DNA from: Dubosiella newyorkensis
Lineage (GTDB): Bacteria > Bacillota_I > Bacilli_A > Erysipelotrichales > Erysipelotrichaceae
Length of the DNA stretch: 19,879 bases
Assembly (NCBI RefSeq): GCF_001945605.1
Contig: NZ_MPKA01000088.1
Span: 1-19,879, forward strand
Direction: 5' to 3'
The notes under the pieces were generated by a model. The model had not been told where the DNA came from. It saw only the letters and a program-made list of their open reading frames with translations, and ran no database searches. Shown here one piece after another: positions 2,091 to 19,329 of this stretch. Numbering within the stretch: the first letter of the stretch is position 1; each line of letters opens with the position of its first letter. The position numbers and the translations under genes were made by a program.

Positions 2091-2204
2091 ATTAGCAACG
2101 TCCTATTCTCGCAGGCGCAAGGCCAACTACCTTCGGCGATGAAGTGCTTGACTTCTGTGTTCGGGACGGGAACAGGTATTTCCACTTCTCTATCGTCACT
2201 AAAT
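2091..2204 (-). rRNA. rrf: 5S ribosomal RNA (isolated copy, no adjacent 23S)
   Basis: The reverse complement reads TTAGTGACGATAGAGAAGTGGAAATACCTGTTCCCGTCCCGAACACAGAAGTCAAGCACTTCATCGCCGAAGGTAGTTGGCCTTGCGCCTGCGAGAATAGGACGTTGCTAAT. It is colinear with Bacillus-type 5S (CCGAACAC.GAAGT.AAGC, GCCGA.GGTAGT, GAGA.TAGGAC). Helix I ends are complementary. The ends are accurate to +/- 2 nt. Confidence 0.9.
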
Positions 2205-2570
2205 CTTTTTACTTGATTATGATATCGGATCTTCCACTAAAAAGCAAGCCTTAATTTCAAATTTTTTGAATCGCGCCATCGATCGGAACGATCTATGGAA
2301 AGCGAGCTGATGAATATGTAAAAAATGGACGAAGAAAACGCCCATTTCAAAGTTCAAAGTGAAGAAATCATTCGCTTTTACTCTTTTCCAGAATTTGTGC
2401 CGTTTGTTTCAACTTCTTTGGTCCAGCAATCATCGAATTGTTGATGCAAAAGACAATATTTTGGGAGGATGATCCCGAATCCAATAGCGAAAATGCAGGT
2501 TAATATTTTTATTTTTTTTCTCACATGAATCGCCTTTCTATTTTTTGATTGATTATAGTATTATATTTTT

Positions 2571-3851
2571 ATGGAAAATATGATTTTGAAGTTTAACTTT
2601 GATAATTTTTACGGTTTATATACGAAGCAGCTCCGTAAATTCTATGAGATCAAGCAAATCGAGATGGCCAATGCTCTTCATGTTTCTAGAAGCGCTTTAA
2701 GCAAAATGGAGTCGAATTCTCAGGAAATGGACGCTGCTCTTTTTGATTCGGTTTTAAGTTTTATTAAAACGATTGATTCGAATTTTGTGTTCTTGAAAGA
2801 TCCGTCAATCTTAAAAGAATATGATAAATGGGTCCGTGATTGCGCTTATCATTTCGTTCATTTAACGGCGGAAAATATTCTTGGTCCTCTAAAAGAATTT
2901 GTAGAACGTACGAATCCGCATAGCTTTGCGTTTTTTCATCATCAACTTCTTGCCGTTTATGTTGCAAAATTTGAAAATCGAAAATGCGAGGAGGAAGTGA
3001 CTCAGTTATATGAGGGCAATTTTTTTGAAGATCCTTTTTATCAAGCTGTATTAAATGATTTTATGGGAATGCGACCTTCTCTTTCTGATGGAAGATCTTT
3101 AGATGAAGCCATTCAATATTTGCGGTCCGCTCAGAATTATTGTTCAATGGCCTTTGATCCAGGTTTATCTGGATTGATCCTCTATCATCAAATTTATCGC
3201 TTCGTGAATGGGAGCCGGACTATAGAGGCTTATGAAATCATTGAAAGGTGCGAAAATGCTTTACAAAGAGCAGGAGCTTACCGCCGAATGCTTTATGTGG
3301 CGCTCAACAAAGGAATCCTGTTTATTCAAATGCATCTTTATCCAAAAGCAATCGCGACTTTTGAAGAACTTCTTCGTTCCAGTCAGCAAATTAATGAACC
3401 TGATTTTATCCAAACGATCTATGATAATTTAGCTTGGTGCTGTTTTCTTCAGGATCAAGATGAGAAAGCGCTTCGATATGCTCGGCTCGCACGGAAAGCG
3501 GGAAGCCGATTCCCAGATATTTATATCGTTTTAGCGTTTAGCTCTTATCGCCTGAAAAGGCAGAGCGATTGTCTTGGATTTATTTCTATGTATTTAAAAA
3601 AGACACAAGGTAGTCCCCGAGAAAAATTTATTGCTTCCTTTCTTCAATTGCTTCGATTTCATTTAACTGGGAATAGTCGTTTTGATAAAAAACAACATCA
3701 GATCGAGCAGCAACTTCAAAATTTTAAAAGTGTTCAATTGGAAATTCCATTTTATACGCTTCTTATTCAACACTATTCAGAACAAGGTCGATCGGATTGT
3801 GTTATCGCTTATCAGGCAAAACTGATTCATTATTTGAAATTTGATTTTTGA
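2571..3851 (+). CDS. Transcriptional regulator, N-terminal XRE-type HTH plus C-terminal TPR-like helical repeats (RNPP/NprR/PlcR-like architecture)
   Basis: 426-aa ORF. The HTH is IKQIEMANALHVSRSALSKMESN. A long all-helical C-terminal region contains TPR-like segments such as IYDNLAWCCFLQDQDEKALRYARLARKAG. No SD is seen upstream of ATG 2571, and ATG 2580 is an alternative start. Confidence 0.75.
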   Translation: MENMILKFNFDNFYGLYTKQLRKFYEIKQIEMANALHVSRSALSKMESNSQEMDAALFDSVLSFIKTIDSNFVFLKDPSILKEYDKWVRDCAYHFVHLTAENILGPLKEFVERTNPHSFAFFHHQLLAVYVAKFENRKCEEEVTQLYEGNFFEDPFYQAVLNDFMGMRPSLSDGRSLDEAIQYLRSAQNYCSMAFDPGLSGLILYHQIYRFVNGSRTIEAYEIIERCENALQRAGAYRRMLYVALNKGILFIQMHLYPKAIATFEELLRSSQQINEPDFIQTIYDNLAWCCFLQDQDEKALRYARLARKAGSRFPDIYIVLAFSSYRLKRQSDCLGFISMYLKKTQGSPREKFIASFLQLLRFHLTGNSRFDKKQHQIEQQLQNFKSVQLEIPFYTLLIQHYSEQGRSDCVIAYQAKLIHYLKFDF

Positions 3852-5481
3852 TCGGGTGAAGGGAATTCTTTCTTTTTTGTAAATATTCTAAGGAGGATAG
3901 AACGTTTACTCCTTGTTTTGTGAATTCGATAACTTCGTCGAAAAGCATGATATTTTCATCGAAAAGTTTATGTGAAATTGAAATGATCGATCCTTTATAA
4001 TTTTTCAAAATATCATATTCGATCTGTTTGGCGTTTTCTTCATCCAATGCTGAAAATGCTTCGTCCAAAAATAGCCAGTCTTTTATATTGTATAAACCTC
4101 TAGCAAGGGATATCCGCTGTAATTCGCCTCCGCTAATTTCCAAACTGTCTTCTTGAACAGATTCGTGAAGACGAGATTTTAAACTATTTAAATGGACTTG
4201 ATCGAGTACTCGATTCAGCTTGTTGGAATCGGCTGTCTGCCACAATGTAATGTTTTCTTCCAATGTCCCTGGAAGCAGGTCTGGAGATTGGCGCAAATAT
4301 GTCAATTGCTTCGCTATCGAAGAATGCTCGAGAGCGTTCGTAGGGATATTATTGGCATAAATATGGGGATGAGGGATCGTTCCGCTCAATAATCCAAGCA
4401 ATGTACTTTTTCCACAGCCGCTTTCTCCAACAACCAAATATTTTTTTCCTTTTTGAAGCTGTAAGGTAAAGTGATCAAATATCGTCTTTTCTTTTCGTTT
4501 GAATACAAGATCTTTTAGTAAAAAAGATTGAATTGGTTCGTTTAAAAGTTTCTTTTGATGTTTTCTTTTTTGAACTTCTTTCAAGTATCCGTCGACAACG
4601 ACGCTTGAGGATTGAACGTTATTATACATTTCCATATACCAGCCAATCGGATTGATGACCATATTGCTTGCTTGAATAATGGTCATAAAAACGCTCAAAG
4701 AAATGAGGTTCTGATTGATCATGTAAAATCCGATCAAAGATTCTCCAAAGAAAATAATATTAACGCCTAAATCATTGATAGCCAATACCCATTGCTTTAA
4801 CCATTCACTATGAATCGTTACTTTGCTTAGTAATTTATTTTGGTTTTGTAGACGAGAAGAATATTTTGTGTCTAAGTCATAATCTTTGATTGTCAAAAAA
4901 TTGGTGCAAAAACCTTTTAATACGCCAATCCACTGCTTTTGATGACTCAACACTTCTTTTTGATTGGATTCTAGTCGTGTCTTGAATGTCCGATTAAATA
5001 AGGATAAAGATAAAGCGCATATATAAATGAACAAAAGGAGGATCCAGCTATTCGTTCCGATATATAAACTCCCGATCAAAAATAGAAATCCATACCGATA
5101 AATATTTAATTTCGAGGTCACATACTGATCGATAATTGTATTGATTTCATTCGTTTGTTTATTGATCCGGGCGCTAGTATCCGTTTTTTGAAATTCATCA
5201 GGTGATAAAGCGAGCCAGGATTCATACAAATCTTGGCTTAGTCTTTCCCGTAACGAATATTTAAAGTAAACCATGAGTCCTTTCATGATCGTTTCAACGA
5301 AAAACATGAGAATCACAAAGGCAACGATCCATTTGACCATTTGGCTTAATGTGTTTTTGTTTTCTAATGTGTTGAAAAAACGACCAAAAAGAATCGACTT
5401 GAAAAGATCGAGCATGGAAAAAGCGAGGATCGAAGCGATAGTCAAATAATAAAGAGCTTTATTTTTTATAAGTTTATGCAT
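3802..5481 (-). CDS. ABC exporter, fused transmembrane domain + ATPase (half-transporter), no N-terminal C39 peptidase domain
   Basis: 559 aa. The hydrophobic N-terminal half begins directly with a TM segment. Walker A is GESGCGKST, the signature is ISGGELQRISLAR, Walker B is WLFLDEAFSALD, and the H-loop is SISHK. The start ATG (5481) overlaps the upstream gene's stop by 8 nt. Confidence 0.85.
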   Translation of the reverse strand: MHKLIKNKALYYLTIASILAFSMLDLFKSILFGRFFNTLENKNTLSQMVKWIVAFVILMFFVETIMKGLMVYFKYSLRERLSQDLYESWLALSPDEFQKTDTSARINKQTNEINTIIDQYVTSKLNIYRYGFLFLIGSLYIGTNSWILLLFIYICALSLSLFNRTFKTRLESNQKEVLSHQKQWIGVLKGFCTNFLTIKDYDLDTKYSSRLQNQNKLLSKVTIHSEWLKQWVLAINDLGVNIIFFGESLIGFYMINQNLISLSVFMTIIQASNMVINPIGWYMEMYNNVQSSSVVVDGYLKEVQKRKHQKKLLNEPIQSFLLKDLVFKRKEKTIFDHFTLQLQKGKKYLVVGESGCGKSTLLGLLSGTIPHPHIYANNIPTNALEHSSIAKQLTYLRQSPDLLPGTLEENITLWQTADSNKLNRVLDQVHLNSLKSRLHESVQEDSLEISGGELQRISLARGLYNIKDWLFLDEAFSALDEENAKQIEYDILKNYKGSIISISHKLFDENIMLFDEVIEFTKQGVNVLSSLEYLQKRKNSLHPIKNQISNNESVLPDKR

Positions 5482-6724
5482 ATCGATATCCGCCAGCTAC
5501 ACATTTTACAAGGTTTTCATATTGTCCGGATACGATGAGTTCGCCCAATTTATCAAATATTCTCAACGCATTTTCTTTTTTATATTCACAATCGGAAAAA
5601 TTGATTTCGTTGTTGATGGCAAGACATTTATGACATTGCCAATTTAAAAAACAATTTCTGCATTTATAGTTATCTTTTGCTAAATAGGCGGATAAGTTGT
5701 TCACTTTATTTGTAAATTGTTCCTCATTAAAGTTAGAAATATCTCCCAATAAGTAAGCATCTCCTTTTTTTATAAACTGCTGACAAGGATATATTTTTCC
5801 ATCAGAGTCGATGGTTATTAGTTGAGTCCCTGCAGCACAAAAAAAATCTTTTCTTTTGCCAATCATAAAATCTCTTAAAAAGCCTTCAGTCCACCGGAAT
5901 TCACCTAATTTATTATTAAGAATTTGCTGAATTTCATTTTCAATATTTCTGGATTCTTCATGCGGTTGATTTTCAATTAAATCAGCTACTAAAATATACG
6001 TATTCGGATATATTTCTTTAAGTATATCTTTCACTTCATTTTTGGAGAGTGTTGACTTTCCGTCATATGTTGCTTCAATAGAAGATATATATGATTGGAT
6101 TGGCAAAGTTTTTTCTAATATTTTTTCAAATGTGCCATTTCCGTTTACGTCAATTCTATTTCGATCATTATCCTTTTTGTTTCCATCAATTGAAAGTGTT
6201 AACTCAATTTCAAATTTTTTTAATAGCTTTATAAATTCAGCGTTTATCAACGTTCCATTTGTTTGACAAAGAAACTTAACGTTAGGATTAATTTCTCTTG
6301 CTTTTTCGCATATCATTTTTATTCCTGATATATTTAATAAGGGTTCTCCTCCAAAAAAACAAATGTATTCCAATTCTTTGTGATTGTGAATAAACTTAAT
6401 TATTTGTTTAATGGTTTGTTCACTCATAATTTTTTTTGGCTTATTATATGTTCCTGCATTGGCATAGCAATATTTACATTTTAGGTTGCACATATTGGCC
6501 ATATTAATCTTTATGATTTTGACTGAAATATTTTTTGTTTTGGCATAAGTTGAATTATTAGTTAATAAATCATAAAATTTTGAATCTTGCTCTTTTTTGT
6601 GTCCTGAATATAGATTTAAAAAATCGTTTAAATATTCTTTGTTTAATTGAAAGGTTTTTAAAGTGTTTGTATCAAATAAAATCTGGGCTTCTGTTAAAAC
6701 TAAGTTTTTATAAACTTTTGCCAT
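5474..6724 (-). CDS. Radical SAM enzyme with C-terminal SPASM domain (peptide-modifying maturase)
   Basis: 416 aa. C79-x3-C83-x2-C86 (CNLKCKYC) and GGEPLL are present. The C-terminus carries CAAGTQLITIDSDGKIYPC (CX12GX4C), CRNCFLNWQCHKC (CX2CX5CX2C) and a later SDCEY, giving a 7-Cys SPASM pattern. The SD GGAGG lies 9 nt upstream of the ATG. Confidence 0.85.
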   Translation of the reverse strand: MAKVYKNLVLTEAQILFDTNTLKTFQLNKEYLNDFLNLYSGHKKEQDSKFYDLLTNNSTYAKTKNISVKIIKINMANMCNLKCKYCYANAGTYNKPKKIMSEQTIKQIIKFIHNHKELEYICFFGGEPLLNISGIKMICEKAREINPNVKFLCQTNGTLINAEFIKLLKKFEIELTLSIDGNKKDNDRNRIDVNGNGTFEKILEKTLPIQSYISSIEATYDGKSTLSKNEVKDILKEIYPNTYILVADLIENQPHEESRNIENEIQQILNNKLGEFRWTEGFLRDFMIGKRKDFFCAAGTQLITIDSDGKIYPCQQFIKKGDAYLLGDISNFNEEQFTNKVNNLSAYLAKDNYKCRNCFLNWQCHKCLAINNEINFSDCEYKKENALRIFDKLGELIVSGQYENLVKCVAGGYRYA

Positions 6725-6748
6725 AATTTTTATCCTCCTGATTTGTAT

Positions 6749-6786
6749 GTAATCAAAAGTGTCGAAAATTCGACACTTTTGATTAC
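6749..6786 (-). promoter_or_regulatory. Intercistronic perfect hairpin between precursor gene and radical SAM gene
   Basis: GTAATCAAAAGTGTCG (6749-6764) / AAAATT / CGACACTTTTGATTAC (6771-6786) forms 16 perfect bp. On the mRNA the 5' arm starts in the last codon and stop codon of the precursor ORF. No U-tract follows (AUACAAAUCAGGAGG). Confidence 0.7.
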
Positions 6787-6866
6787 ATGTTAATGTCTCC
6801 GCAACCTATACCACCACCACAACGGCAAGGGGCTTGTAAAATTTTAACTAGCTTTAATTCAAACAT
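6783..6866 (-). CDS. Candidate RiPP precursor peptide, 27 aa: MFELKLVKILQAPCRCGGGIGCGDINM
   Basis: Hand translation of the reverse complement. ATG (6866-6864) is preceded by AAAGGAGA plus an 8-nt spacer. An in-frame TAA lies upstream with no alternative start. The stop is TAA (6785-6783). The gene sits first in the operon, directly upstream of the rSAM/SPASM gene. It is too short for the ORF track. Confidence 0.7.
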   Translation of the reverse strand: MFELKLVKILQAPCRCGGGIGCGDINM

Positions 6867-6891
6867 TATTTTTTCTCCTTTCTGCTTAGAT

Positions 6892-6905
6892 ACTTTTGCA
6901 AAAGT
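6892..6905. promoter_or_regulatory. Perfect 14-bp palindrome ACTTTTGCAAAAGT in the predicted 5' UTR of the precursor operon
   Basis: Read directly from the sequence. It lies between the predicted -10 (6926-6931) and the SD (about 6875-6881). It could be an operator or a small RNA hairpin. Confidence 0.3.
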
Positions 6906-6925
6906 TCTTTATTTAAAGCAATTTT

Positions 6926-6954
6926 ATATTAGAAAATAAATAAAATTCTAACAA
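6926..6954 (-). promoter_or_regulatory. Candidate sigma-A promoter of the precursor-rSAM-ABC operon (TTGTTA-17 nt-TAATAT)
   Basis: Minus strand reads TTGTTA (6954-6949), a 17-nt spacer, then TAATAT (6931-6926). It is about 60 nt upstream of the precursor ATG. Confidence 0.55.
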
Positions 6955-6960
6955 TGGTTT

Positions 6961-6972
6961 ATGTTCGAACAT
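6961..6972. promoter_or_regulatory. Perfect 12-bp palindrome ATGTTCGAACAT, 6 nt upstream of the -35; candidate activator (HTH regulator) box
   Basis: Read directly from the sequence. The position is analogous to PlcR/Rgg-type boxes just upstream of or overlapping the -35. No second copy was noticed in the window. Confidence 0.35.
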
Positions 6973-7088
6973 TATAGGATTAATTATGAGAATGAAATAA
7001 ACAATTTTATGTTTCTTACACGATTGTTCGCTCAATTGACTTGACGTATATGATACGATAGTTGCGATTTAGGATGGGAGGTGTTCTT

Positions 7089-8108: not shown

Positions 8109-8777
8109 TTAATAGATCCATTTAAAATTGTCTTTGCCCGCTCCAAGTTCAAAAAAGTAGCGGACGATTCCTTGATCGGCTAAAGAAAAGGCGGCTTCTT
8201 TGGTATGGATGGAAACTTCATCGCCTTTGCCTTGTAAAAAGAAGTTTTGCTTGTTCAAAGCCGTTGGAGCAAGAAGTGCCGCGTCGACACCTTTCCGGAA
8301 CCAATCGGGCTCTTTTCCTTCATAGAGGCTGACTTCTCTGCTGTTTTTGGAAGGATGCGGCTTACCAGAGGTTTCGCCATACCCAAAGACGAGGATCCCG
8401 ATCACATGGTCGGCTTGCGCTTGCGTTTTGACTTTTTTGTGGTTCCATGTTCCACCGATCCACCAGGTGTTCAAGCCTAATGTCTGGGCGTAAAGCATAA
8501 GGTCGGCGCTGGCTTCGCCAATATTCTCATCGGCTCGAATGCGATCATCCGAAGCCAAGATCATATAATTGGTCGCGTTTTTGGCGATCACATAGCGAAG
8601 AGGCAAGAACAAGCCATCCTTTTGGTCGCATTTGAGACTGATTTTTGTGTTGTATGTTTGATTCACTTGTTCGATCCGTTTTGAAAGCTTGTCTAAGATT
8701 GGCTGGGGAATCGCTTTCTTTTTATATTGACGAACGGTATGGCGCGTATAGATCGCTTCCTTCATTGATAAACTCAT
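8109..8777 (-). CDS. Nitroreductase family protein
   Basis: 222-aa ORF. The N-terminus EAIYTRHTVRQYKKKAIPQPILDKL is typical of the NADH/FMN nitroreductase fold family. The SD GAGGTG lies upstream. Confidence 0.75.
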   Translation of the reverse strand: MSLSMKEAIYTRHTVRQYKKKAIPQPILDKLSKRIEQVNQTYNTKISLKCDQKDGLFLPLRYVIAKNATNYMILASDDRIRADENIGEASADLMLYAQTLGLNTWWIGGTWNHKKVKTQAQADHVIGILVFGYGETSGKPHPSKNSREVSLYEGKEPDWFRKGVDAALLAPTALNKQNFFLQGKGDEVSIHTKEAAFSLADQGIVRYFFELGAGKDNFKWIY

Positions 8778-8825: not shown

Positions 8826-9278
8826 TCAATAGAATGAACCTCTATATCGAGAAGCGCCAAAACCTAAGATCATGATGAAGATCGGGTTCAAAAAGATCAA
8901 ACCAAGCGCGAACAAAAAGTCATATCCAAAAGAGAGCGCCAAATTATACCACATGTAGGCGAGCACGAGCATCGAAAGGATCGAAAGGATCCAGCTGAAA
9001 GCACCCAACCAAAACAGAAGCGCAAAACCGGACAGCCAAGAACAAAGCCCGCCCATCAAGCCCAAAACGGCCCACACTAAAAAGTAGCTTGGCTTACCTG
9101 CGATCTGAAAACAAATATAGAGATTATAGATCGGAATGATCGCTTTCCATCCTTGCTCTCCCGCCTTTTCAAACGTTTGATACAATCCAAGAACGAGCAG
9201 GACATACCAGATAAAGCTAAATACGCCATAAAAGTTGTTCCATGGCAAAGAAGTAAAGATATTTAAGAATATAGACAT
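8826..9278 (-). CDS. Small polytopic membrane protein (DUF5684-like)
   Basis: The motif GEQGWKAIIPIYNLYICFQIAGKP sits within a multi-TM protein. The start is moved to the second ATG (9278) because GGAGGAG lies 5-6 nt upstream. The track ORF starts at 9305. Confidence 0.6.
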   Translation of the reverse strand: MSIFLNIFTSLPWNNFYGVFSFIWYVLLVLGLYQTFEKAGEQGWKAIIPIYNLYICFQIAGKPSYFLVWAVLGLMGGLCSWLSGFALLFWLGAFSWILSILSMLVLAYMWYNLALSFGYDFLFALGLIFLNPIFIMILGFGASRYRGSFY

Positions 9279-9440
9279 TGAATCTCCTCCATTTCGTATA
9301 TCCATAGTATACTATCCCGTTAGAGGATCGAGTGCGAATAGTGCAACATAAAAAATGTAAAATGACACAAATGTAAGCCCACTGTAAGCTCGCTTCCTCC
9401 TCTTTTTTTAGATAATAAAGAAAAAAGGAGAAGCATGTTT

Positions 9441-9842: not shown

Positions 9843-10751
<909 letters not shown>

Positions 10752-10767
10752 AGAGGAATATATATAT

Positions 10768-12036
10768 ATGAAATGCATAAAAAATGGAACCATCCTCATT
10801 GATGGAGAACTTCAAAAAGTCGATCTGCTCTTCGATGAAACGATCCAAAAGATCGGAACGGATCTTGACACTTCCAATTGTGAAGAAGTGATCGACGCTA
10901 CGAATCTGACCGTATTGCCAGGCCTTGTCGATGTCCATGTCCACTTGCGCGAACCAGGACATAGCGAAAAAGAAACGATCAAGACCGGAACGAGAGCTGC
11001 AGCCGCTGGAGGATTCACGACGATCTTTGCGATGCCCAACGTCCTGCCATTTCCAAGCAGCGAAGAAGTCATGAAAGACTACCTCGATCTGATCCAAAAA
11101 GAAGCGATCGTGCACGTCTATCCATTTGCGACCATCACCAAAAATGAAGCTGGACAAGAAATTGTCGATTACGCTTCCCTTAAAAAACTAGGAATCGAAT
11201 GGTTTTCCGACGACGGGGTTGGCGTAGCCAGCAAAGAAATCATGAAAGAAGCGATGCTTTCTGCCAAAGAAAACGATGTCCTCTTCTCATGCCATACCGA
11301 AGACATGAACTATCGGGCTCCTAACGCCTCCGTGCACGCCTCCAAGATCAACGAAGAAAAAGGCTGGATCGGCATTCCTTCCGCTTGCGAAAGCGAACAG
11401 CTCATCCGCGACCTCGAACTCGTTCAAGACATTGGAAACCGCTATCACGCCTGCCACATCTCGGCCAAAGAAAGCGTCAAAGCCCTTCAAAAAGCTAAAG
11501 ACCAAGGCTTGGACGTCTCCGGTGAAGTAACAGCCCATCATCTCCTCTTAGAAGACAAAGATGTGCAGGGGCCCAACTGGAAAATGAATCCGCCCCTTAG
11601 AAGCCATGAAGATCGAATGGCCCTCATCCAAAGCTTGGAAAGCGGAGTTCTCGATCTGATCGCCAACGACCACGCGCCTCATACAGCCGAAGAAAAAGCA
11701 AGAAGCATGGAAAAAGCGCCATTCGGGATCGTATCCTTAGAAACAAGCTTCCCGCTTCTTTATACGGAATTTGTATGGAAACAAAAACGATGGACATTAG
11801 CTCAACTTGTCAACTGGATGTCCACCACCCCTGCCTATCGATTCGGCTTATTCGATCGAGGTGAAATCAAAGAAGGCAAAAAAGCCGACTTGATCCTTGT
11901 AGATCTCGAACACGAAACAAAGATCGACGCCTCAAAATTCGAATCGATGGGAAAAAACACACCCTTTGACCAACAAAAGGTGCACGCCCAAATAGTAGAA
12001 ACGTATGTCGATGGACAACGAGTTTGGAAAGGATAA
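10768..12036 (+). CDS. pyrC: Dihydroorotase
   Basis: 422 aa with the VDVHVHLREPG metal-binding motif. Operon context supports the call. Confidence 0.9.
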   Translation: MKCIKNGTILIDGELQKVDLLFDETIQKIGTDLDTSNCEEVIDATNLTVLPGLVDVHVHLREPGHSEKETIKTGTRAAAAGGFTTIFAMPNVLPFPSSEEVMKDYLDLIQKEAIVHVYPFATITKNEAGQEIVDYASLKKLGIEWFSDDGVGVASKEIMKEAMLSAKENDVLFSCHTEDMNYRAPNASVHASKINEEKGWIGIPSACESEQLIRDLELVQDIGNRYHACHISAKESVKALQKAKDQGLDVSGEVTAHHLLLEDKDVQGPNWKMNPPLRSHEDRMALIQSLESGVLDLIANDHAPHTAEEKARSMEKAPFGIVSLETSFPLLYTEFVWKQKRWTLAQLVNWMSTTPAYRFGLFDRGEIKEGKKADLILVDLEHETKIDASKFESMGKNTPFDQQKVHAQIVETYVDGQRVWKG

Positions 12037-12040
12037 AAAA

Positions 12041-13123
12041 ATGAAAGAAAGACTGCTGATCTTAGAAGATGGAAGTGTGTATAAAGGAAAAGCGTTTGGA
12101 AGCGACAACTTTCAAATCGGAGAACTTGTCTTCAATACCTCGATGACAGGCTATCAAGAAATCTTGACCGACAATTCATATTGCGGACAAATCGTCATGA
12201 TGACCTATCCGCTCATTGGAAACTATGGAATCAACCGCGACGATTACGAAAGCATCGTGCCAGCCGTCTTCGGCTTTGTCGTAAAAGACTATTGCGACGC
12301 TCCAAGCAATTGGCGCGCTCAAGAAACGCTCAACGACTTTTTGGTCCGCGAAAACATCCCCGGCATCTATGGGATCGATACTCGCGCCATCACCCGCAAA
12401 TTGCGTGATCAAGGCGTCATGAAAGCCACGATGGCCGATCCAGACGCCAACATCGAAGAAATCGTCAAACAACTCAAAGAAACAGACTATTTGCACGACC
12501 AAGTCAAACGAGTTGCCTCCGACAAGATCTTCCCGATCCCGAATCGAGGAAAAAAAGTCGTCCTCATGGACTTTGGCGCAAAACTTGGCATCGTGCGCGA
12601 ACTCTCGAAACGCGGCTGCGATCTGATCGTCGTTCCTTGGAACACGCCAGCCGAAAAGATCCTCTCATACCATGCCGATGGCGTCATGCTCACCAATGGA
12701 CCAGGCAACCCAGAAGATCTTCCAGAAACGATCGAAACGATCCGCCAGCTCATTCCGCATACTGTCGTCTTTGGCATCTGCCTAGGCCATCAGCTCATCT
12801 CTCTGGCCTGCGGAGCCAAGACATACAAGCTTAAATTCGGCCACCGCGGCGGAAACCATCCAGTAATCGATCTAGCGACAGGAAAAGTCCAGATCACCTC
12901 GCAAAACCATGGCTACGCCGTCGACATCGATTCGCTCGAAAACACACCACTCGAACTAAGCCACCAAGCGCTCAACGATAAAAGCTGCGAAGGTGTGCGC
13001 CATACCCAATACCCTTGCTTTTCTGTCCAGTTCCACCCAGAAGCGAGCGCCGGACCAGAAGACGCAAGAGACTTATTCGATGAATTTATCAATATGATGG
13101 ACAAGGAGGGACACCATGCCTAA
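12041..13123 (+). CDS. carA: Carbamoyl-phosphate synthase small (glutaminase) subunit
   Basis: The start is moved to ATG 12041 ([16 protein letters not shown]), just after the pyrC stop and with GGAAAGGA upstream. The GATase active site is GICLGHQL. Its end overlaps the carB start by 8 nt. Confidence 0.9.
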
Positions 13124-16100
13124 AAGAGAAGACATCCATAAGATCCTTGTGATCGGCTCCGGTCCGATCGTCATTGGACAAGCTGCCGAATTCGACTATG
13201 CCGGCAGCCAAGCGTGCCAGTCGCTACGCGAAGAAGGCTACGAAGTCATTTTGATCAACTCGAACCCAGCGACGATCATGACCGATACGACGATCGCCGA
13301 CCGCGTCTATATCGAACCGATCACGCTCGACTTCGCAAAACGAGTCATCTATAAAGAACGCCCCGACGCGATCTTAGGCTCGTTAGGCGGACAAACAGGA
13401 CTCAACTTAGTCGTCGACCTGCATGAAGACGGGATCTTAGACGAGTTTGGCGTTGAAATTTTAGGAACCGACCTGCAAGCGATCAACCGCGCCGAAGACC
13501 GCGAACTCTTTCGAGCCCTCATGCAAGAAATCGAAGAACCGGTGCCTGAAAGTACGATCGTCCATACGGTCGAAGAAGCCGTTCAATTTTGCCAAAAACT
13601 CGGATATCCAGTCGTCGTGCGCCCAGCCTACACACTAGGAGGAACGGGTGGCGGATTTGCCGACAATGAAAAAGAATTGCGTGAAATTTGCGAAGCGGGC
13701 CTCAAAATCTCGCCCGTCCATCAATGCTTGATCGAGCAAAGCATCGCCGGCTATAAAGAAATCGAATACGAAGTGATGCGCGACGCCAACAACAACGCCA
13801 TCGTCGTCTGCAACATGGAAAATGTCGATCCTGTCGGCATCCATACGGGCGATAGCATCGTCGTGGCTCCTGTGCAAACGCTCACCGACCACGAAAATCA
13901 AATGCTTCGTTCCGCCTCGCTCAAGATCATCCGCGCCCTTAAGATCTGCGGGGGATGCAACGTGCAGCTCGCTCTCGATCCAAAGAGCTTCAAATACTAT
14001 GTGATCGAAGTCAATCCACGCGTATCCCGCTCTTCAGCCCTCGCCTCCAAAGCGACAGGCTATCCGATCGCCAAAATTTCCGCGAAACTCGCGGTTGGAT
14101 TGACGCTCGATGAGATCCTCAACCCGATCACGAAAACGAGCTACGCGTGCTTCGAGCCCGCCATCGATTATGTCGTCAGCAAATTCGCCCGCTTCCCATT
14201 CGACAAGTTCCCGAACGCCGACCGCCATTTAGGCACGCAAATGAAGGCGACAGGCGAAGTGATGTCGATTGGAAGAACGATGGAAGAATCTCTTTTGAAG
14301 GCGGTACGATCCTTAGAAATGAAAGTCGACCACCTAGAAAAGAAAGAAATGCTCGACTTATCCGATGAAGAGCTTTTAGAAGAAATCAAAAAGTCCGACG
14401 ACACCCGCATTTTCGCGATCGCCCAGTGGTTGCGCAATGGAAACAGCGCCGAAACGATCCATGAAATCACAAAAATGGATCCATTTTTCTTGGCCCATAT
14501 CCAACGTATCATCGATCTTGAACAACAACTCAAAGAAAATCAAAACGACATCGCTCTGCTCAAAGAAGCCAAGACCTATGGCTTTTCCGATAGCTATATC
14601 GCGCGCATCTGGAATACGACCCCAAAAGCGATCTACGATCTACGTAAACAAAACCACATTATTCCTGTCTATAAAATGGTCGATACATGCGCAGGTGAAT
14701 TCAAGAGCGCCACGCCATATTTCTATTCGACGTACGAAGAAGAAAACGAATCGATCCCATCGGATAAGAAGAAGATCGTCGTTCTTGGCTCGGGACCGAT
14801 CCGAATTGGACAAGGTGTCGAATTCGACTACGCGACCGTCCATTGTGTAGAGACGCTAAGAAACGAAGGCTATGAAGCGATTATCATCAACAACAACCCA
14901 GAAACAGTCTCGACCGACTTTTCGATCTCCGATAAACTTTATTTCGAGCCATTGACGACCGAAGATGTGATGCACGTCATCGAATTGGAAAAACCGCTTG
15001 GCGTGATCGTGCAATTTGGCGGACAGACCGCCATCAACTTGGCCGATTCGCTCGTCGAACATGGAGTAAAGATTTTAGGAACTTCTTTGGAAGATATCGA
15101 CCGCGCCGAAGACCGCCACGAATTCGAAGAAATGCTGCATAAACTCGATATTCCGCAGCCAAAAGGCGAAACCGCGACCACCGTGGAAGAAGCGCTCGTG
15201 ATCGCCAACAAGATCGGCTATCCAGTCCTTGTACGTCCTAGCTACGTGCTTGGAGGCAGGGCGATGGAAATCGTGCATAACGATGACGACTTAAAAGTAT
15301 ACATGGCCACAGCCGTCCAAGAAATCTCGCATGACGCGCCTATCCTTGTCGACAAATATATTGTCGGAAAAGAGCTCGAAATCGACGCGATCGCGGATGG
15401 AGAAAACGTCTATATTCCTGGGGTCATGGAACATATCGAACGGGCTGGCGTCCATTCTGGCGACTCGATCTCCGTCTATCCGACCCAGACGATCTCGCAA
15501 AAAGCCAAAGATACGATCATAGACTATGGAGAACGGATCGGAAGAGGCTTCCATTTTATCGGACTGTATAATATTCAATTTATTGTCGATAAGGACGATA
15601 AAGTCTATGTGCTTGAAGTCAATCCGCGCTCTTCAAGAACGGTGCCATTCCTTTCCAAGATCACTGGCGTGCCAATGGCGAGTATCGCGACCAAGGCGAT
15701 CATGGGCGAAACGCTGATCGATCAAGGCATCACGCCAGGCTATTTGCCAGACGATCCAAATCGGGTCTTTGTCAAAGCGCCAGTCTTCTCGTTCGCCAAA
15801 TTGCGTGGAGTCGATACGGTGCTCGGCCCAGAAATGAAATCGACAGGCGAGGCGCTTGGCTCGGATATTTCGCTTGAAAAAGCGCTCTACAAAGCGCTTG
15901 TGGCAAGCGGCATCCAAGTTCCGACGCATGGCAATGTGCTGCTTACGATCGCGGACGAAGACAAAGAAGACGCGCTCTCTTTAGCGAAGCGTTTTGCGAG
16001 CATTGGCTATGGCTTGTACGCCACGAAAGGAACGGCTCAATTTTTGCGCGATCATGGCTTGTTCGTCCATGAAGTCGACAAGATCGAAGAGGGCTCCGAC

Positions 16101-16322
16101 AATAGCGTGGTCGACATCATTCGTGAGGGCAAAGTCAACTTCGTGATCAATACGATGTCGCAAAAAAATAAAAACTCAAGAGCCGATGGCTTTTTGATCC
16201 GCCGTGTTTCGGCTGAAAACAGCATTTCATGCATGACTTCGCTCGATACGGCCGCGATTCTTTTGAAAGTGCTCGAGTCGTTGAGCTTCTCGATGGTCTC
16301 GATGAATGAAATGGGAAAATAA
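13116..16322 (+). CDS. carB: Carbamoyl-phosphate synthase large subunit
   Basis: 1068 aa with duplicated ATP-grasp halves ([21 protein letters not shown] and [18 protein letters not shown]). Confidence 0.95.
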
Positions 16323-16323
16323 A

Positions 16324-18663
<2,340 letters not shown>

Positions 18664-19329
18664 ATGGAAGCGTATAAAAAAGAATTTATCGAATTCATGT
18701 TGGATTCGGATGTATTAAAATTTGGCGATTTTACTCTCAAATCGGGTCGTAAATCTCCGTTCTTCATGAACGCGGGCGGCTATGTGACAGGCGCTCAGCT
18801 CAAGAAGCTTGGAGAATATTATGCCAAAGCGATCGTCAACACGTATGGAACGGATTTTGATGTACTTTTCGGCCCTGCTTATAAAGGGATCCCTTTGGCT
18901 GTCGTGACGGCGATCGCGATGCATGATCTGTATGGAAAAGAAGTCCGCTATTGCTCGGATCGAAAAGAAGAGAAAGATCATGGCGCGGATAAAGGCAGCT
19001 TTCTTGGTTCGAAGCTTCAAGATGGCGATCGGGTGATCATGATCGAAGATGTGACGACGTCTGGAAAATCGATGGAAGAAACGGTGCCGAAGGTAAGAGG
19101 CGCGGCGAATTTAGATATTGTTGGTTTGATGGTCTCTTTGAACCGCAACGAAAAAGGAAAGGGCGATAAGACAGCCTTGCAGGAAGTGTCTGAATTGTAT
19201 GGTTTTCCGTGCGCGGCGATCGTCTCGATGAAAGAAGTCATTGAATATTTAGAAGAGGCCGGCAAGCTCGATGAGGCGATGAAAGCTAAGCTAAACGCGT
19301 ATTATGAACAATACGGAGCGAAGGCATAA
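18664..19329 (+). CDS. pyrE: Orotate phosphoribosyltransferase
   Basis: 221 aa with the PRPP-binding loop VIMIEDVTTSGKS. Its ATG directly abuts the pyrF stop. Confidence 0.9.
   Translation: MEAYKKEFIEFMLDSDVLKFGDFTLKSGRKSPFFMNAGGYVTGAQLKKLGEYYAKAIVNTYGTDFDVLFGPAYKGIPLAVVTAIAMHDLYGKEVRYCSDRKEEKDHGADKGSFLGSKLQDGDRVIMIEDVTTSGKSMEETVPKVRGAANLDIVGLMVSLNRNEKGKGDKTALQEVSELYGFPCAAIVSMKEVIEYLEEAGKLDEAMKAKLNAYYEQYGAKA

Follow-up and report, generated by a model that had tools for sequence, protein, structure and literature searches.

The question raised by this locus is whether a 27-codon open reading frame (ORF) upstream of a radical SAM gene is a true precursor peptide gene and, if so, what the operon makes and how it is controlled. 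The window (the whole stretch of 19,879 nucleotides of Dubosiella newyorkensis DNA that was analysed) contains a low-GC island (26–36%, against 43–52% in the flanks), in which no protease or immunity gene was found. It is probable, in our judgement and with regulation included, that the four genes of this island make, cross-link and export a 27-residue Cys/Gly peptide. The island, of about 5 kb, would have been gained horizontally.

The precursor ORF (MFELKLVKILQAPCRCGGGIGCGDINM; 27 codons and a stop) was read from ATG to TAA on the minus strand at 6866–6783, and a strong Shine-Dalgarno sequence, AAGGAG, is located 8 nt 5' of the ATG (6880–6875, minus strand); both had been predicted. Scanning of all six frames of the window with the pattern C-x(0,1)-GG-x(1,3)-CG returned this ORF as the single match. 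Its leader comprises approximately residues 1–14 and its core contains C16, G18, G19, C22 and G23. Homologous loci were then compared, as the original prediction had suggested. A similar small ORF precedes the radical SAM homologue in 10/10 other loci examined, Breznakia pachnodae among them, giving 7 further distinct peptides of 25–27 aa 5' of enzymes at 39–79% identity. Alignment of the 8 distinct precursors showed M1, E3, C16, G18, G19, C22 and G23 to be invariant (leader motif M-x-E-[LI]; core motif C-(x)-G-G-x-x-C-G-[DNS]-x(2,3)). At the level of sequence, the precursor family was thereby shown to be kept wherever the enzyme family occurs in the loci examined. The expectation that the gene escapes annotation was borne out: an exact-peptide search of about 15 billion predicted proteins returned none of the 8 peptides, and neither Pfam nor NCBIfam has a family that matches any of them.

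Conservation of the ORF was assessed between the two closest loci, the one in the window and L001. The precursor frame has 12 codon differences that leave the residue unchanged and 8 that alter it (3/19 and 1/21, respectively, for the alternative frames), and 18 of the 28 base differences fall at third positions, a pattern of the coding type. Because other loci encode a homologous peptide in the equivalent place and substitutions are biased towards synonymous changes, the 27-codon ORF is, on this comparative evidence, a real gene that evolves as coding sequence. A short ORF in an AT-rich spacer might also arise by chance, next to a SPASM enzyme with no part in RiPP synthesis, for instance a sulfatase maturase; against this, the 8 distinct homologous peptides hold an equal position although the spacer DNA is unalignable, and the substitutions show the synonymous bias. 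The other half of this alternative concerns the enzyme.

The gene that follows (6724–5474, minus strand) encodes a 416-aa protein, assigned as a radical SAM/SPASM peptide maturase from its Pfam matches, Cys motifs and fold. The predicted CX3CX2C motif (C79x3C83x2C86), GGEPLL (residues 125–130) and seven C-terminal Cys (296, 314, 355, 358, 364, 367 and 379) were all located and are invariant in 14 homologues. The N-terminal domain (residues ~1–60) is RRE-like, and the seven-Cys SPASM region spans residues 296–379. In Pfam searches Radical_SAM was significant and Fer4_12 was matched, with SPASM just under its gathering score (20.3 vs 21.5 bits). PapB was the best NCBIfam model (183 bits vs a cut-off of 340) and the top scorer in 14/14 members of the enzyme family; the five top models are PapB, the nif11-type maturase, the SCIFF maturase, a ScfB-related protein and QhpD. 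In this NCBIfam search the enzyme stayed below every curated cut-off of the named maturase families. The best solved structure by sequence was CteB (5wgg, E = 8e-29), which was also the best fold match of the AF2 model (pLDDT 85.5; 455–470 alignment columns, full length including the N-terminal domain). Like CteB, a thioether-forming maturase, the enzyme has a three-cluster Cys set and an RRE-like N-terminal domain. Its closest relatives are two thioether-forming maturases, PapB by sequence model and CteB by both sequence and predicted fold. The anaerobic sulfatase maturase anSME is among the structural matches, but its model scored 88 bits vs a cut-off of 349, well under the peptide maturases, and a sulfatase gene is absent nearby. 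Taken with the 8 homologous peptides and the substitution bias, this effectively refutes a chance ORF beside a sulfatase maturase, a reading to which we give almost no credence. The refutation tests set out in the original prediction thereby favour the RiPP reading. More distant relatives of the enzyme have precursors that differ but are again Cys-rich, PapB-type CxxxD peptides among them; the whole enzyme neighbourhood accordingly consists of Cys-peptide maturases.

In the proposed mechanism the leader, with its alternating hydrophobic pattern, would dock as a strand on the N-terminal domain of the enzyme. For each of the invariant Cys, C16 and C22, hydrogen would be taken from the residue 2 or 3 positions further downstream, and bonding of the Cys sulfur to the hydrogen-stripped carbon would give two small unnested thioether rings, either to the alpha carbon (sactionine) or to the beta carbon (ranthionine). 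In the precursor family the Cys+2 residue varies (D, N or S) and Cys+3 is unconserved, and the acceptor residue therefore cannot be assigned. A thioether product is suggested by analogy with the nearest relatives and by the two invariant Cys. The SPASM block of the enzyme reads CX2CX5CX2C instead of the usual CX2CX5CX3C, and this odd spacing, with scores under all curated family cut-offs, makes a different reaction possible. SPASM maturases of equal architecture do many reactions, and cyclophane, ether and epimerase families are among the weaker matches; the enzyme of the operon might form a carbon–carbon or carbon–oxygen cross-link, epimerise a residue or alter the backbone, the Cys serving to ligate an auxiliary cluster or to form a disulfide. 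Such chemistry is considered improbable, as the five top models and the CteB structure are all of enzymes with Cys-containing peptide substrates or Cys-thioether products, and the two Cys are the sole invariant core side chains; at no position does the 8-peptide alignment keep an aromatic residue, a Lys or a Thr for the other known chemistries.

Between the precursor and enzyme genes lies a perfect stem-loop (6747..6788, minus strand) with a 19-bp stem and a 4-nt loop; its arms, measured as inverted repeats, are 20 nt long and 100% complementary (6747–6766 and 6769–6788). A perfect hairpin had been predicted with 16 bp; the stem is longer, at 19–20 bp, and stronger than claimed (dG −26.9 kcal/mol, z = −8.4; 0/200 shuffles as good). 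It takes in the precursor stop codon and is not followed by a T-run. The stem core (11–12 bp) is kept in L001 and L003, and L004, L006, L008, L087, L090 and L091 have a stem-loop of unrelated sequence in the equivalent place; every locus carries one at this junction, in differing sequences. The hairpin is presumed to be an attenuator or a transcript stabiliser, and would keep the precursor transcript above the enzyme transcript.

The third gene of the operon (5481–3802, minus strand) encodes a 559-aa TMD-NBD ABC half-transporter (Pfam ABC_membrane 20–278, ABC_tran 336–476). Its ATG overlaps the stop codon of the enzyme gene (ATGCATAA), as had been proposed; the two genes share 8 nt, and from this arrangement the two genes are taken to be translationally coupled. 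The enzyme–transporter pair is kept in L001, L004, L006, L087, L089 and L090. The best NCBIfam model was the streptosactin exporter GggC (134 bits vs a cut-off of 750), and the protein would secrete the product. No C39 peptidase domain was found in the Pfam search of the transporter; because the exporter is of this kind, cleavage of the leader by an unlinked protease is proposed.

The sigma-A-like promoter of the original prediction was found as TTGTTA (6954–6949), 17 nt and TAATAT (6931–6926) on the minus strand (6926..6954). It matches 8/12 consensus positions and was missed by a consensus scan, in which shuffled sequences yielded more sites than the real one; the orthologous locus L003 (79% identity) nevertheless keeps the geometry at the matching place (TTGTTA-17-TAAAAT). 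The promoter is the weakest of the locus items checked. Directly 5' of the −35 hexamer is a perfect 12-bp palindrome, ATGTTCGAACAT (6961..6972), the single exact copy in the window. It lies within a block, AATGTTCGAACATAAA...TTGTTA, that is kept in the 79%-identity orthologous loci L001 and L003, farther upstream of which the DNA is unalignable. The palindrome is a candidate operator of the regulator, an assignment made from two sequences. A second perfect palindrome, ACTTTTGCAAAAGT (6892..6905), is part of inverted repeat I15 in the presumed 5' leader and lies inside the conserved block AAAGAACTTTTGCAA[A/G]AGTATCT.

A regulator of 426 aa (2571–3851, plus strand; Pfam HTH_3 and TPR_12) converges on the operon, with 50 bp shared between its gene and the 3' end of the ABC gene, an arrangement also found in L001. 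The HTH/TPR assignment of the original prediction held, with the correction that the regulator is not of the streptococcal Rgg type. The best PDB folds for the AF2 model (pLDDT 88.9) were phage phi3T Rap, RapF, NprR-NprX, RapH and RapI (E 4e-7 to 1e-4, TM 0.5–0.7). The predicted fold is that of an RRNPP receptor of the Rap/NprR kind. Divergent from it is a 48-aa ORF that had been overlooked previously (MRKKIKILTCIFAIGFGIILPKYCLLHQQFDDCWTKEVETNGTNSGKE; 2524–2378, minus strand; GTG start, SD GAAAGG 8 nt upstream). The N-terminus of its product is basic, and a hydrophobic stretch is present. The ORF is also kept in L001, next to the orthologous regulator, and in L094, a locus without a radical SAM gene, next to a paralogous regulator of 37% identity. 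It appears to be a candidate secreted propeptide or signal for the regulator, though it could instead encode a small membrane or immunity protein. Expression would be density-dependent, the regulator acting at the conserved palindrome 5' of the −35 hexamer with the secreted 48-aa peptide as its signal.

A second clade of loci is organised differently. In L004, L006, L008, L087 and L090 an HTH-TPR regulator of 365–382 aa is directly 5' of, and co-directional with, a 25–26-aa peptide gene, and a conserved, regulated-looking promoter (TTTC[CA]CAAA-N9-TTG...GATAAT) lies between the two. These regulators have no BLAST-detectable similarity to that of the window (hhalign probability 46%), and a scan of the 350 nt that precede the radical SAM genes showed no separate ORF for a signal peptide. 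Since the regulator family differs and no separate signal ORF was seen, the regulatory model of the window may be restricted to its own clade. The order in most homologous loci resembles the classical receptor-propeptide layout of nprR-nprX, plcR-papR and rap-phr. The exported cross-linked peptide might accordingly be the pheromone of the adjacent receptor, in an autoinduction loop, rather than an antimicrobial; the second-clade order and promoter, the lack of another conserved small ORF in the interval scanned and the island without an immunity gene all fit this. So do the streptococcal CGG, CGx and VSA operons, in which rgg is present and shp unidentifiable (PMC13361665). Such a loop is judged unlikely. 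In the window itself the regulator belongs to another family and converges on the operon instead of preceding it, and a conserved 48-aa signal-peptide ORF of its own lies beside it; the second-clade regulators, moreover, are HTH plus TPR as judged by sequence alone. The ligands of known RRNPP receptors are short linear unmodified peptides, which also speaks against it.

The preferred reading thus remains an exported, thioether-bridged peptide, the likeliest role of which, by analogy with the streptococcal examples, is narrow-spectrum inhibition or fratricide; this role is the least supported step. The locus had been put forward as the best candidate for an undescribed system. The precursor/enzyme family is indeed undescribed: the precursor is new relative to Pfam, NCBIfam and about 15 billion proteins, and the enzyme scores under every curated maturase cut-off, comparisons outside which the uncharacterised streptococcal 'CGG'/'CGx' subfamilies lie. 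The kind of system is already established, that of the quorum-regulated radical SAM thioether RiPPs, for which both small unnested thioether rings and quorum control of the operons have precedent (PMC9389541, PMC8172795, PMC13361665). From the streptococcal members the locus differs in its regulator, the fold of which is that of the Rap/NprR quorum-sensing receptors, unlike streptococcal Rgg.

The precursor gene is a 27-codon ORF on the minus strand (6866-6783; ATG start, TAA stop; translation MFELKLVKILQAPCRCGGGIGCGDINM), with AAGGAG, read from the sequence as a Shine-Dalgarno element, 8 nt before its ATG. Its position upstream of the radical SAM (rSAM) gene had been proposed in the original prediction, and was borne out both by homologous small ORFs 5' of rSAM homologues and by coding-type substitutions. 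In every locus fetched (11 loci) a small ORF precedes the rSAM gene by 40-120 nt, and eight distinct precursors were recovered from these loci, each encoded directly 5' of the rSAM gene: MFELKLVKILQAPCRCGGGIGCGDINM; MTELKLVKILQIPRGCFGGIGCGDMKI; MKELKFEFQSNVALSCGGHSCGSLIC; MTEITYNCVSDVMPLCGGFGCGDVKI; MKELSFDINLNVAVACGGMACGNVIC; MKEIAFDVKFDVSVACGGLLCGNMIC; MTEINYDVSVDVTVACGGIICGNRT; MTEILIEFSTECEIPCGGIGCGDLIC. The peptides are 25-27 aa long and were aligned over their full set; M1, E3, C16, G18, G19, C22 and G23 are invariant, and the core reads C-(x)-G-G-x-x-C-G-[DNS], with two invariant Cys residues. The precursor gene was compared with that of L001, an orthologous locus (79% identity): 28 of the 84 bases differ, third codon positions accounting for 18, and the differing codons comprise 12 synonymous and 8 non-synonymous changes (3/19 and 1/21 in the other two frames). 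This synonymous bias points to a translated precursor gene under purifying selection. The eight peptides had no Pfam or NCBIfam match, and an exact look-up of these and two longer-start variants in about 15 billion predicted proteins returned none of them. In a six-frame translation of the window the precursor motif occurs once.

The structural elements listed in the original prediction were all present on the sequence. The proposed sigma-A-like promoter corresponds to the pair TTGTTA-17-TAATAT (6954-6926, minus strand), the weakest of them: only 8 of its 12 positions match the consensus, and a consensus scan missed it and returned fewer sites than shuffled sequences did. A 12-bp perfect palindrome, ATGTTCGAACAT, lies upstream of this pair (6972-6961), and no second copy was found in the window, for instance before the regulator gene. 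A 14-bp perfect palindrome, ACTTTTGCAAAAGT (6905-6892), falls in what is presumed to be the 5' leader of the precursor mRNA, within a block conserved in L001 and the second orthologous locus, L003; it may serve as an operator or as an RNA structure. Two spacer blocks are kept between the window and L001/L003, AATGTTCGAACATAAA-N3-TTGTTA-17-TAA[T/A]AT and AAAGAACTTTTGCAA[A/G]AGTATCT; farther 5' the spacers no longer align. The hairpin proposed between the precursor and rSAM genes was also found, but its predicted 16 bp proved too short: the inverted repeat (6788-6747) has 20-nt perfectly complementary arms that take in the precursor stop codon, and folds into a 19-bp stem (dG -26.9 kcal/mol, z = -8.4). 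Stable stem-loops of unrelated sequence occupy the same place in every locus, several of them followed by T-runs, and the retention of structure without sequence argues for a function. The hairpin may cause partial termination or stabilise the transcript, and either effect would leave the precursor in excess over the enzyme. Such an excess is common in peptide natural-product operons.

The rSAM gene (6724-5474, minus strand; AGGAGG ahead of the ORF) encodes 416 aa. The protein is 100% identical to a deposited D. newyorkensis entry, and 'radical SAM/SPASM domain-containing protein' has so far been the sole annotation of the locus. The 120 best homologues include about twenty relatives at 38-79% identity, after which identity falls to 33% or less; the close relatives come in nearly all cases from metagenome assemblies, together with Breznakia pachnodae. 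That species also supplied the one close member in a profile search of genome contigs. A search of metagenome contigs with the rSAM alignment gave no close family member (best match, 32% identity), and a word-index search returned the query itself only.

The motifs named in the original prediction (CX3CX2C, GGEPLL and a seven-Cys SPASM pattern) were confirmed, all being invariant in 14 homologues: C79x3C83x2C86 and GGEPLL at 125-130 in the radical SAM core (Pfam PF04055, 75 bits against a cut-off of 29.5), and C296, C314, C355, C358, C364, C367 and C379 in the C-terminal part. The Pfam SPASM match lies just below the gathering score (20.3 against 21.5 bits), and the fold of the region matches those of CteB and anSME. 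Throughout the family the SPASM block is spaced CX2CX5CX2C, and not CX2CX5CX3C as is usual. For all 14 members the best NCBIfam model was the PapB ranthipeptide maturase (NF047865), on which the window protein scored highest, at 183 bits against a cut-off of 340; the nif11-type, SCIFF, ScfB-related, QhpD and CcpM maturase models came next. Assignment to the anaerobic sulfatase maturases was rejected, their model giving 88 bits, far under the PapB score. By sequence the closest solved structure is CteB (5WGG, E = 8e-29). The AlphaFold model of the enzyme (pLDDT 85.5) likewise found CteB as its best fold match (Foldseek E 2.5e-18; alignments of 455-470 columns, more than the query length), with anSME and ChlB next. 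In this model residues 1-60 make up four short strands and then helices (pLDDT >90), a predicted arrangement like that of the leader-binding domain in enzymes of this type.

Remoter rSAM relatives (25-31% identity), from other phyla and from an Erysipelotrichaceae MAG, which the searches of genome and metagenome contigs brought up, also have small Cys/Gly-rich peptides upstream, with similar M-x-E-[LI]-type leaders. Examples are ...CDGPIGGCGIGCSNY in the Erysipelotrichaceae MAG, ...CGVIVCGG... in Anaerococcus, ...CGSCGGLFCGG... in Cloacimonadota and ...CHCQSGSCGGGR... in Bdellovibrionales. Small peptide genes beside distant relatives were located at 1029-1133 (L017), 3551-3718 (L023), 3658-3771 (L011), 3644-3763 (L024), 3591-3752 (L030), 3319-3489 (L084) and 348-701 (L096). 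CxxxD (PapB-type) precursors were seen only beside more distant rSAMs, in loci L010, L014, L015 and L039. The Cys-rich precursors of the distant relatives, taken with the NCBIfam and CteB matches, place the enzyme by sequence among the Cys-peptide maturases, but in no curated family. From the precursors themselves it seems possible that 'CGG'-type peptides form a broad superfamily, most of it unannotated.

The exporter gene (5481-3802, minus strand) encodes a TMD-NBD half-transporter of 559 aa, and its ATG overlaps the rSAM stop as ATGCATAA. The overlap of the two genes is 8 nt long in the window, as it is in loci L001, L004, L006, L087, L089 and L090; in L091 the ABC gene has been lost and a transposase adjoins. 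The exporter has no N-terminal peptidase domain, and its best NCBIfam model was the streptosactin exporter GggC (NF050039; 134 bits against a cut-off of 750). The 426-aa HTH/TPR regulator expected to converge on the operon was present on the plus strand (2571-3851), overlapping the ABC gene tail to tail by 50 bp (3802-3851). With such an overlap, convergent transcription could couple the expression of regulator and exporter. In L001 the corresponding overlap is 47 bp.

At the sequence level the regulator carries HTH_3 and TPR_12 domains and a marginal match to a phage Rap protein (E = 0.07); no Rgg-family match was obtained in NCBIfam or Pfam. Rgg proteins are about 285 aa long. The AlphaFold model (13-sequence alignment; pLDDT 88.9) was searched against the PDB with Foldseek, and the top 19 matches were all Rap or NprR proteins, many with peptide bound (Rap of phi3T, phi105 and pLS20; RapF/H/I/J; NprR-NprX; E 4e-7 to 5e-4, TM up to 0.6-0.7). 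From these fold matches the regulator is predicted to be a peptide receptor of the RRNPP type, like NprR in pairing an HTH with a Rap-like TPR, and not an Rgg protein.

A further ORF, missed in the original prediction, lies divergent from the regulator gene and 46 bp from it (2524-2378, minus strand; 48 aa, GTG start, SD GAAAGG; MRKKIKILTCIFAIGFGIILPKYCLLHQQFDDCWTKEVETNGTNSGKE), and is deposited merely as 'hypothetical protein'. It is kept beside the orthologous regulator in L001 (MNKKIKLLLLGLLIGAGVIVPKYCEEHNCFDECWIKEVHPKGTNSGKE) and beside a paralogous D. newyorkensis regulator of 37% identity that has no rSAM neighbour (L094, 3764-3907; MKKKLWNLIAVLLIGGTIILPQYCPHHHKFDDCWTVNSSYGTNNGHK). The products have a basic N-terminus, a hydrophobic stretch of at least 13 residues (Kyte-Doolittle mean 2.7-2.9) and a conserved C-terminal half, PKYC...FD[DE]CW...GTN[SN]G, with two conserved Cys. 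A search of 1.84 billion representatives returned the ORF itself and its L001 orthologue; two large repeat proteins (P0135 and P0137) were rejected as repeat-boosted artefacts. The basic N-terminus and hydrophobic stretch, and co-inheritance with the receptor and not with the rSAM gene, make the ORF a candidate for a secreted RRNPP propeptide, although a small membrane protein with these same features could equally be encoded. If a propeptide is indeed made, it would be the putative ligand of the neighbouring receptor.

In the other clade of loci (L004, L006, L008, L087 and L090) a different HTH-TPR regulator of 365-382 aa is encoded directly upstream of the peptide gene and in the same direction. 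It has no BLAST similarity to the regulator of the window (hhalign probability 46%), and the spacers of this clade share a promoter motif of their own, TTTC[CA]CAAA-N9-TTG...GATAAT. The constancy of the peptide-rSAM-ABC module, set against the exchange of the regulator module, supports control of the former by the latter. A separate signal gene was not seen in the stretches examined (350 nt upstream of the rSAM genes). In most loci the receptor gene directly precedes the gene for a 25-26-aa Cys-Gly peptide, followed by rSAM and exporter, and this order raises a speculative and rather improbable reading for the regulator-adjacent clade, in which the cross-linked, ABC-exported peptide is itself the cognate pheromone of the RRNPP-type receptor. 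If true, no enzymatically macrocyclised signal would have been known before for receptors of this class. The reading would also offer an explanation for the streptococcal RaS-RiPP operons of the CGG, CGx and VSA groups, which have a regulator but no shp.

The regulator-ABC-rSAM-peptide block forms an island at about 2200-7060, with 26-36% GC against 43-52% in the flanks, and this low GC content suggests horizontal acquisition. At its left edge lies an orphan 5S rRNA gene (2203-2090, minus strand; Rfam RF00001, 83 bits, full-length), with no 16S or 23S gene adjoining and a GC-rich palindromic terminator-like hairpin after it (2043-2060); the 5S gene may mark the insertion site. The flanks hold an alpha-amylase gene, a patatin-like lipase gene and a complete pyrimidine operon of ordinary housekeeping genes (9855-19329, plus strand; pyrB, pyrC, carA, carB, pyrK, pyrD, pyrF and pyrE). 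Two minus-strand ORFs (8109-8777 and 8826-9305) had no NCBIfam match at E <= 1e-20. A defence system was considered and dropped, a PADLOC scan having given only generic domain similarity. In a relative, locus L092, the operon has decayed (3879-5717): an internal deletion has left of the rSAM only 55 aa, in which its N- and C-terminal ends are joined, the ABC gene is broken into pieces of 430 and 113 aa, no precursor ORF was recognised, and the regulator (68% identity) is intact. L001 is flanked by IS66 fragments. The operon is thus an accessory, mobile and sometimes decaying trait.

Gene content, a conserved precursor, the enzyme's class and the regulator's predicted fold together suggest the following sequence of events. 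The leader would dock on the N-terminal domain of the rSAM, and C16 and C22 would be closed into two thioether rings. The ABC exporter would secrete the product, an unlinked protease would remove the leader, and the regulator would place the operon under quorum control; the role of the product may be inhibitory or fratricidal. Within the core, the residues at Cys+1 and Cys+2 are fixed as G-G and G-[D/N/S] and those at Cys+3 vary, a pattern that fits short unnested rings; the acceptor residue and carbon are not readable from sequence. Small rings are known from streptosactin, in which they run from i to i+3 (Cys25-Ser28, Cys31-Gly34), and from QmpB, with one intervening residue (PMC8172795, PMC13361665, PMC9389541). 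A more modest novelty, if true, would be an undescribed link at i+2, from Cys to Gly or to Asp/Asn/Ser, in the smallest known rSAM RiPP precursor.

The locus shows how a whole peptide natural-product system can go unseen behind a gene of 27 codons, shorter than the usual minimum length set in gene callers. D. newyorkensis, a prominent commensal of the mouse gut, is under study as a probiotic. The theme of quorum-regulated radical-SAM peptides, known from streptococci with Rgg/SHP, would be extended to Erysipelotrichaceae with Rap/NprR-type receptors. The substrate is very small (a core of 11-13 residues with two Cys) and comes in eight natural variants, making it handy for studies of ring chemistry and enzyme specificity. 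No concept is overturned; the value lies in a defined new family and in a connection of RRNPP signalling with RiPP production that can be put to the test.

PapB (freyrasin, Paenibacillus polymyxa) and CteB (Clostridium thermocellum, PDB 5WGG/5WHY) share with the present enzyme a radical SAM core, a seven-Cys SPASM region and, as judged from its model, a putative RRE-like N-terminal domain. In both cases a Cys-containing precursor is encoded directly 5', with a leader that starts M-x-E/K-[LI], as in neighbouring families. The rSAM nevertheless stays under the PapB cut-off (183 against 340 bits), its precursor is without the six CX3D repeats of freyrasin, its SPASM spacing is CX2CX5CX2C, and position Cys+2 is taken by D, N or S, while PapB needs an acidic acceptor. 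The SCIFF family (TIGR03974) differs in score (132 bits against a cut-off of 425) and in precursor, which there has about 45 aa and six Cys, compared with 27 aa and two invariant Cys here.

The same minimal layout, a small precursor, an rSAM, a peptidase-less ABC exporter and a peptide-sensing HTH regulator, is found in the quorum-regulated RaS-RiPP operons of streptococci, especially those for streptosactin (GggA/GggB/GggC) and suisactin (QmpB), the 'type 2' sactipeptides, which have a narrow spectrum and act on the producer itself. By analogy with these, the Gly-rich core with its two Cys five or six residues apart would fit two small unnested rings (PMC8172795, PMC13361665, PMC9389541). The scores are far under the cut-offs (GggB, NF050038, 75 against 650 bits; GggC, 134 against 750), the precursor here is shorter, and the host belongs to the Erysipelotrichaceae and not to Streptococcus. 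The regulator is a Rap/NprR-like protein of 426 aa in place of Rgg, and no SHP-like gene is present; the 48-aa ORF, whose N-terminus resembles a signal peptide, stands there instead. Two uncharacterised RaS-RiPP subfamilies of streptococci (Bushin et al. 2018, as listed in PMC13361665), 'CGG' (S. orisratti) and 'CGx', take their names from a precursor motif and are reported to have a regulator without an identifiable shp. In the regulator-adjacent clade, too, the stretches examined held no separate signal gene. Any relation is probably distant, since no named Streptococcus protein was among the 120 best rSAM homologues, most of which are listed without an organism name. A literature search found no paper describing the precursor or enzyme family, and nothing relevant linking Dubosiella or Erysipelotrichaceae to rSAM RiPPs.

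The regulatory part resembles the RRNPP cassettes NprR-NprX, Rap-Phr and PlcR-PapR in its HTH plus TPR receptor, of predicted Rap/NprR fold, and in an adjoining small ORF with a basic N-terminus and a hydrophobic stretch that is kept with the receptor across paralogues. It differs in that sequence similarity to named receptors reaches only E of about 0.02-0.07, and in that the candidate propeptide ORF is divergent, not downstream, and has two conserved Cys. TprA/PhrA, which controls a lantibiotic cluster in S. pneumoniae, is a precedent for receptor control of a neighbouring peptide operon. By scores and precursor the locus thus falls outside the PapB, SCIFF and streptosactin families, with a regulator that by sequence and predicted fold is not of the Rgg/SHP type. 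By analogy it is expected to work like a sacti-/ranthipeptide or streptococcal RaS-RiPP operon, and it probably represents an undescribed precursor and enzyme family within an established kind of system.
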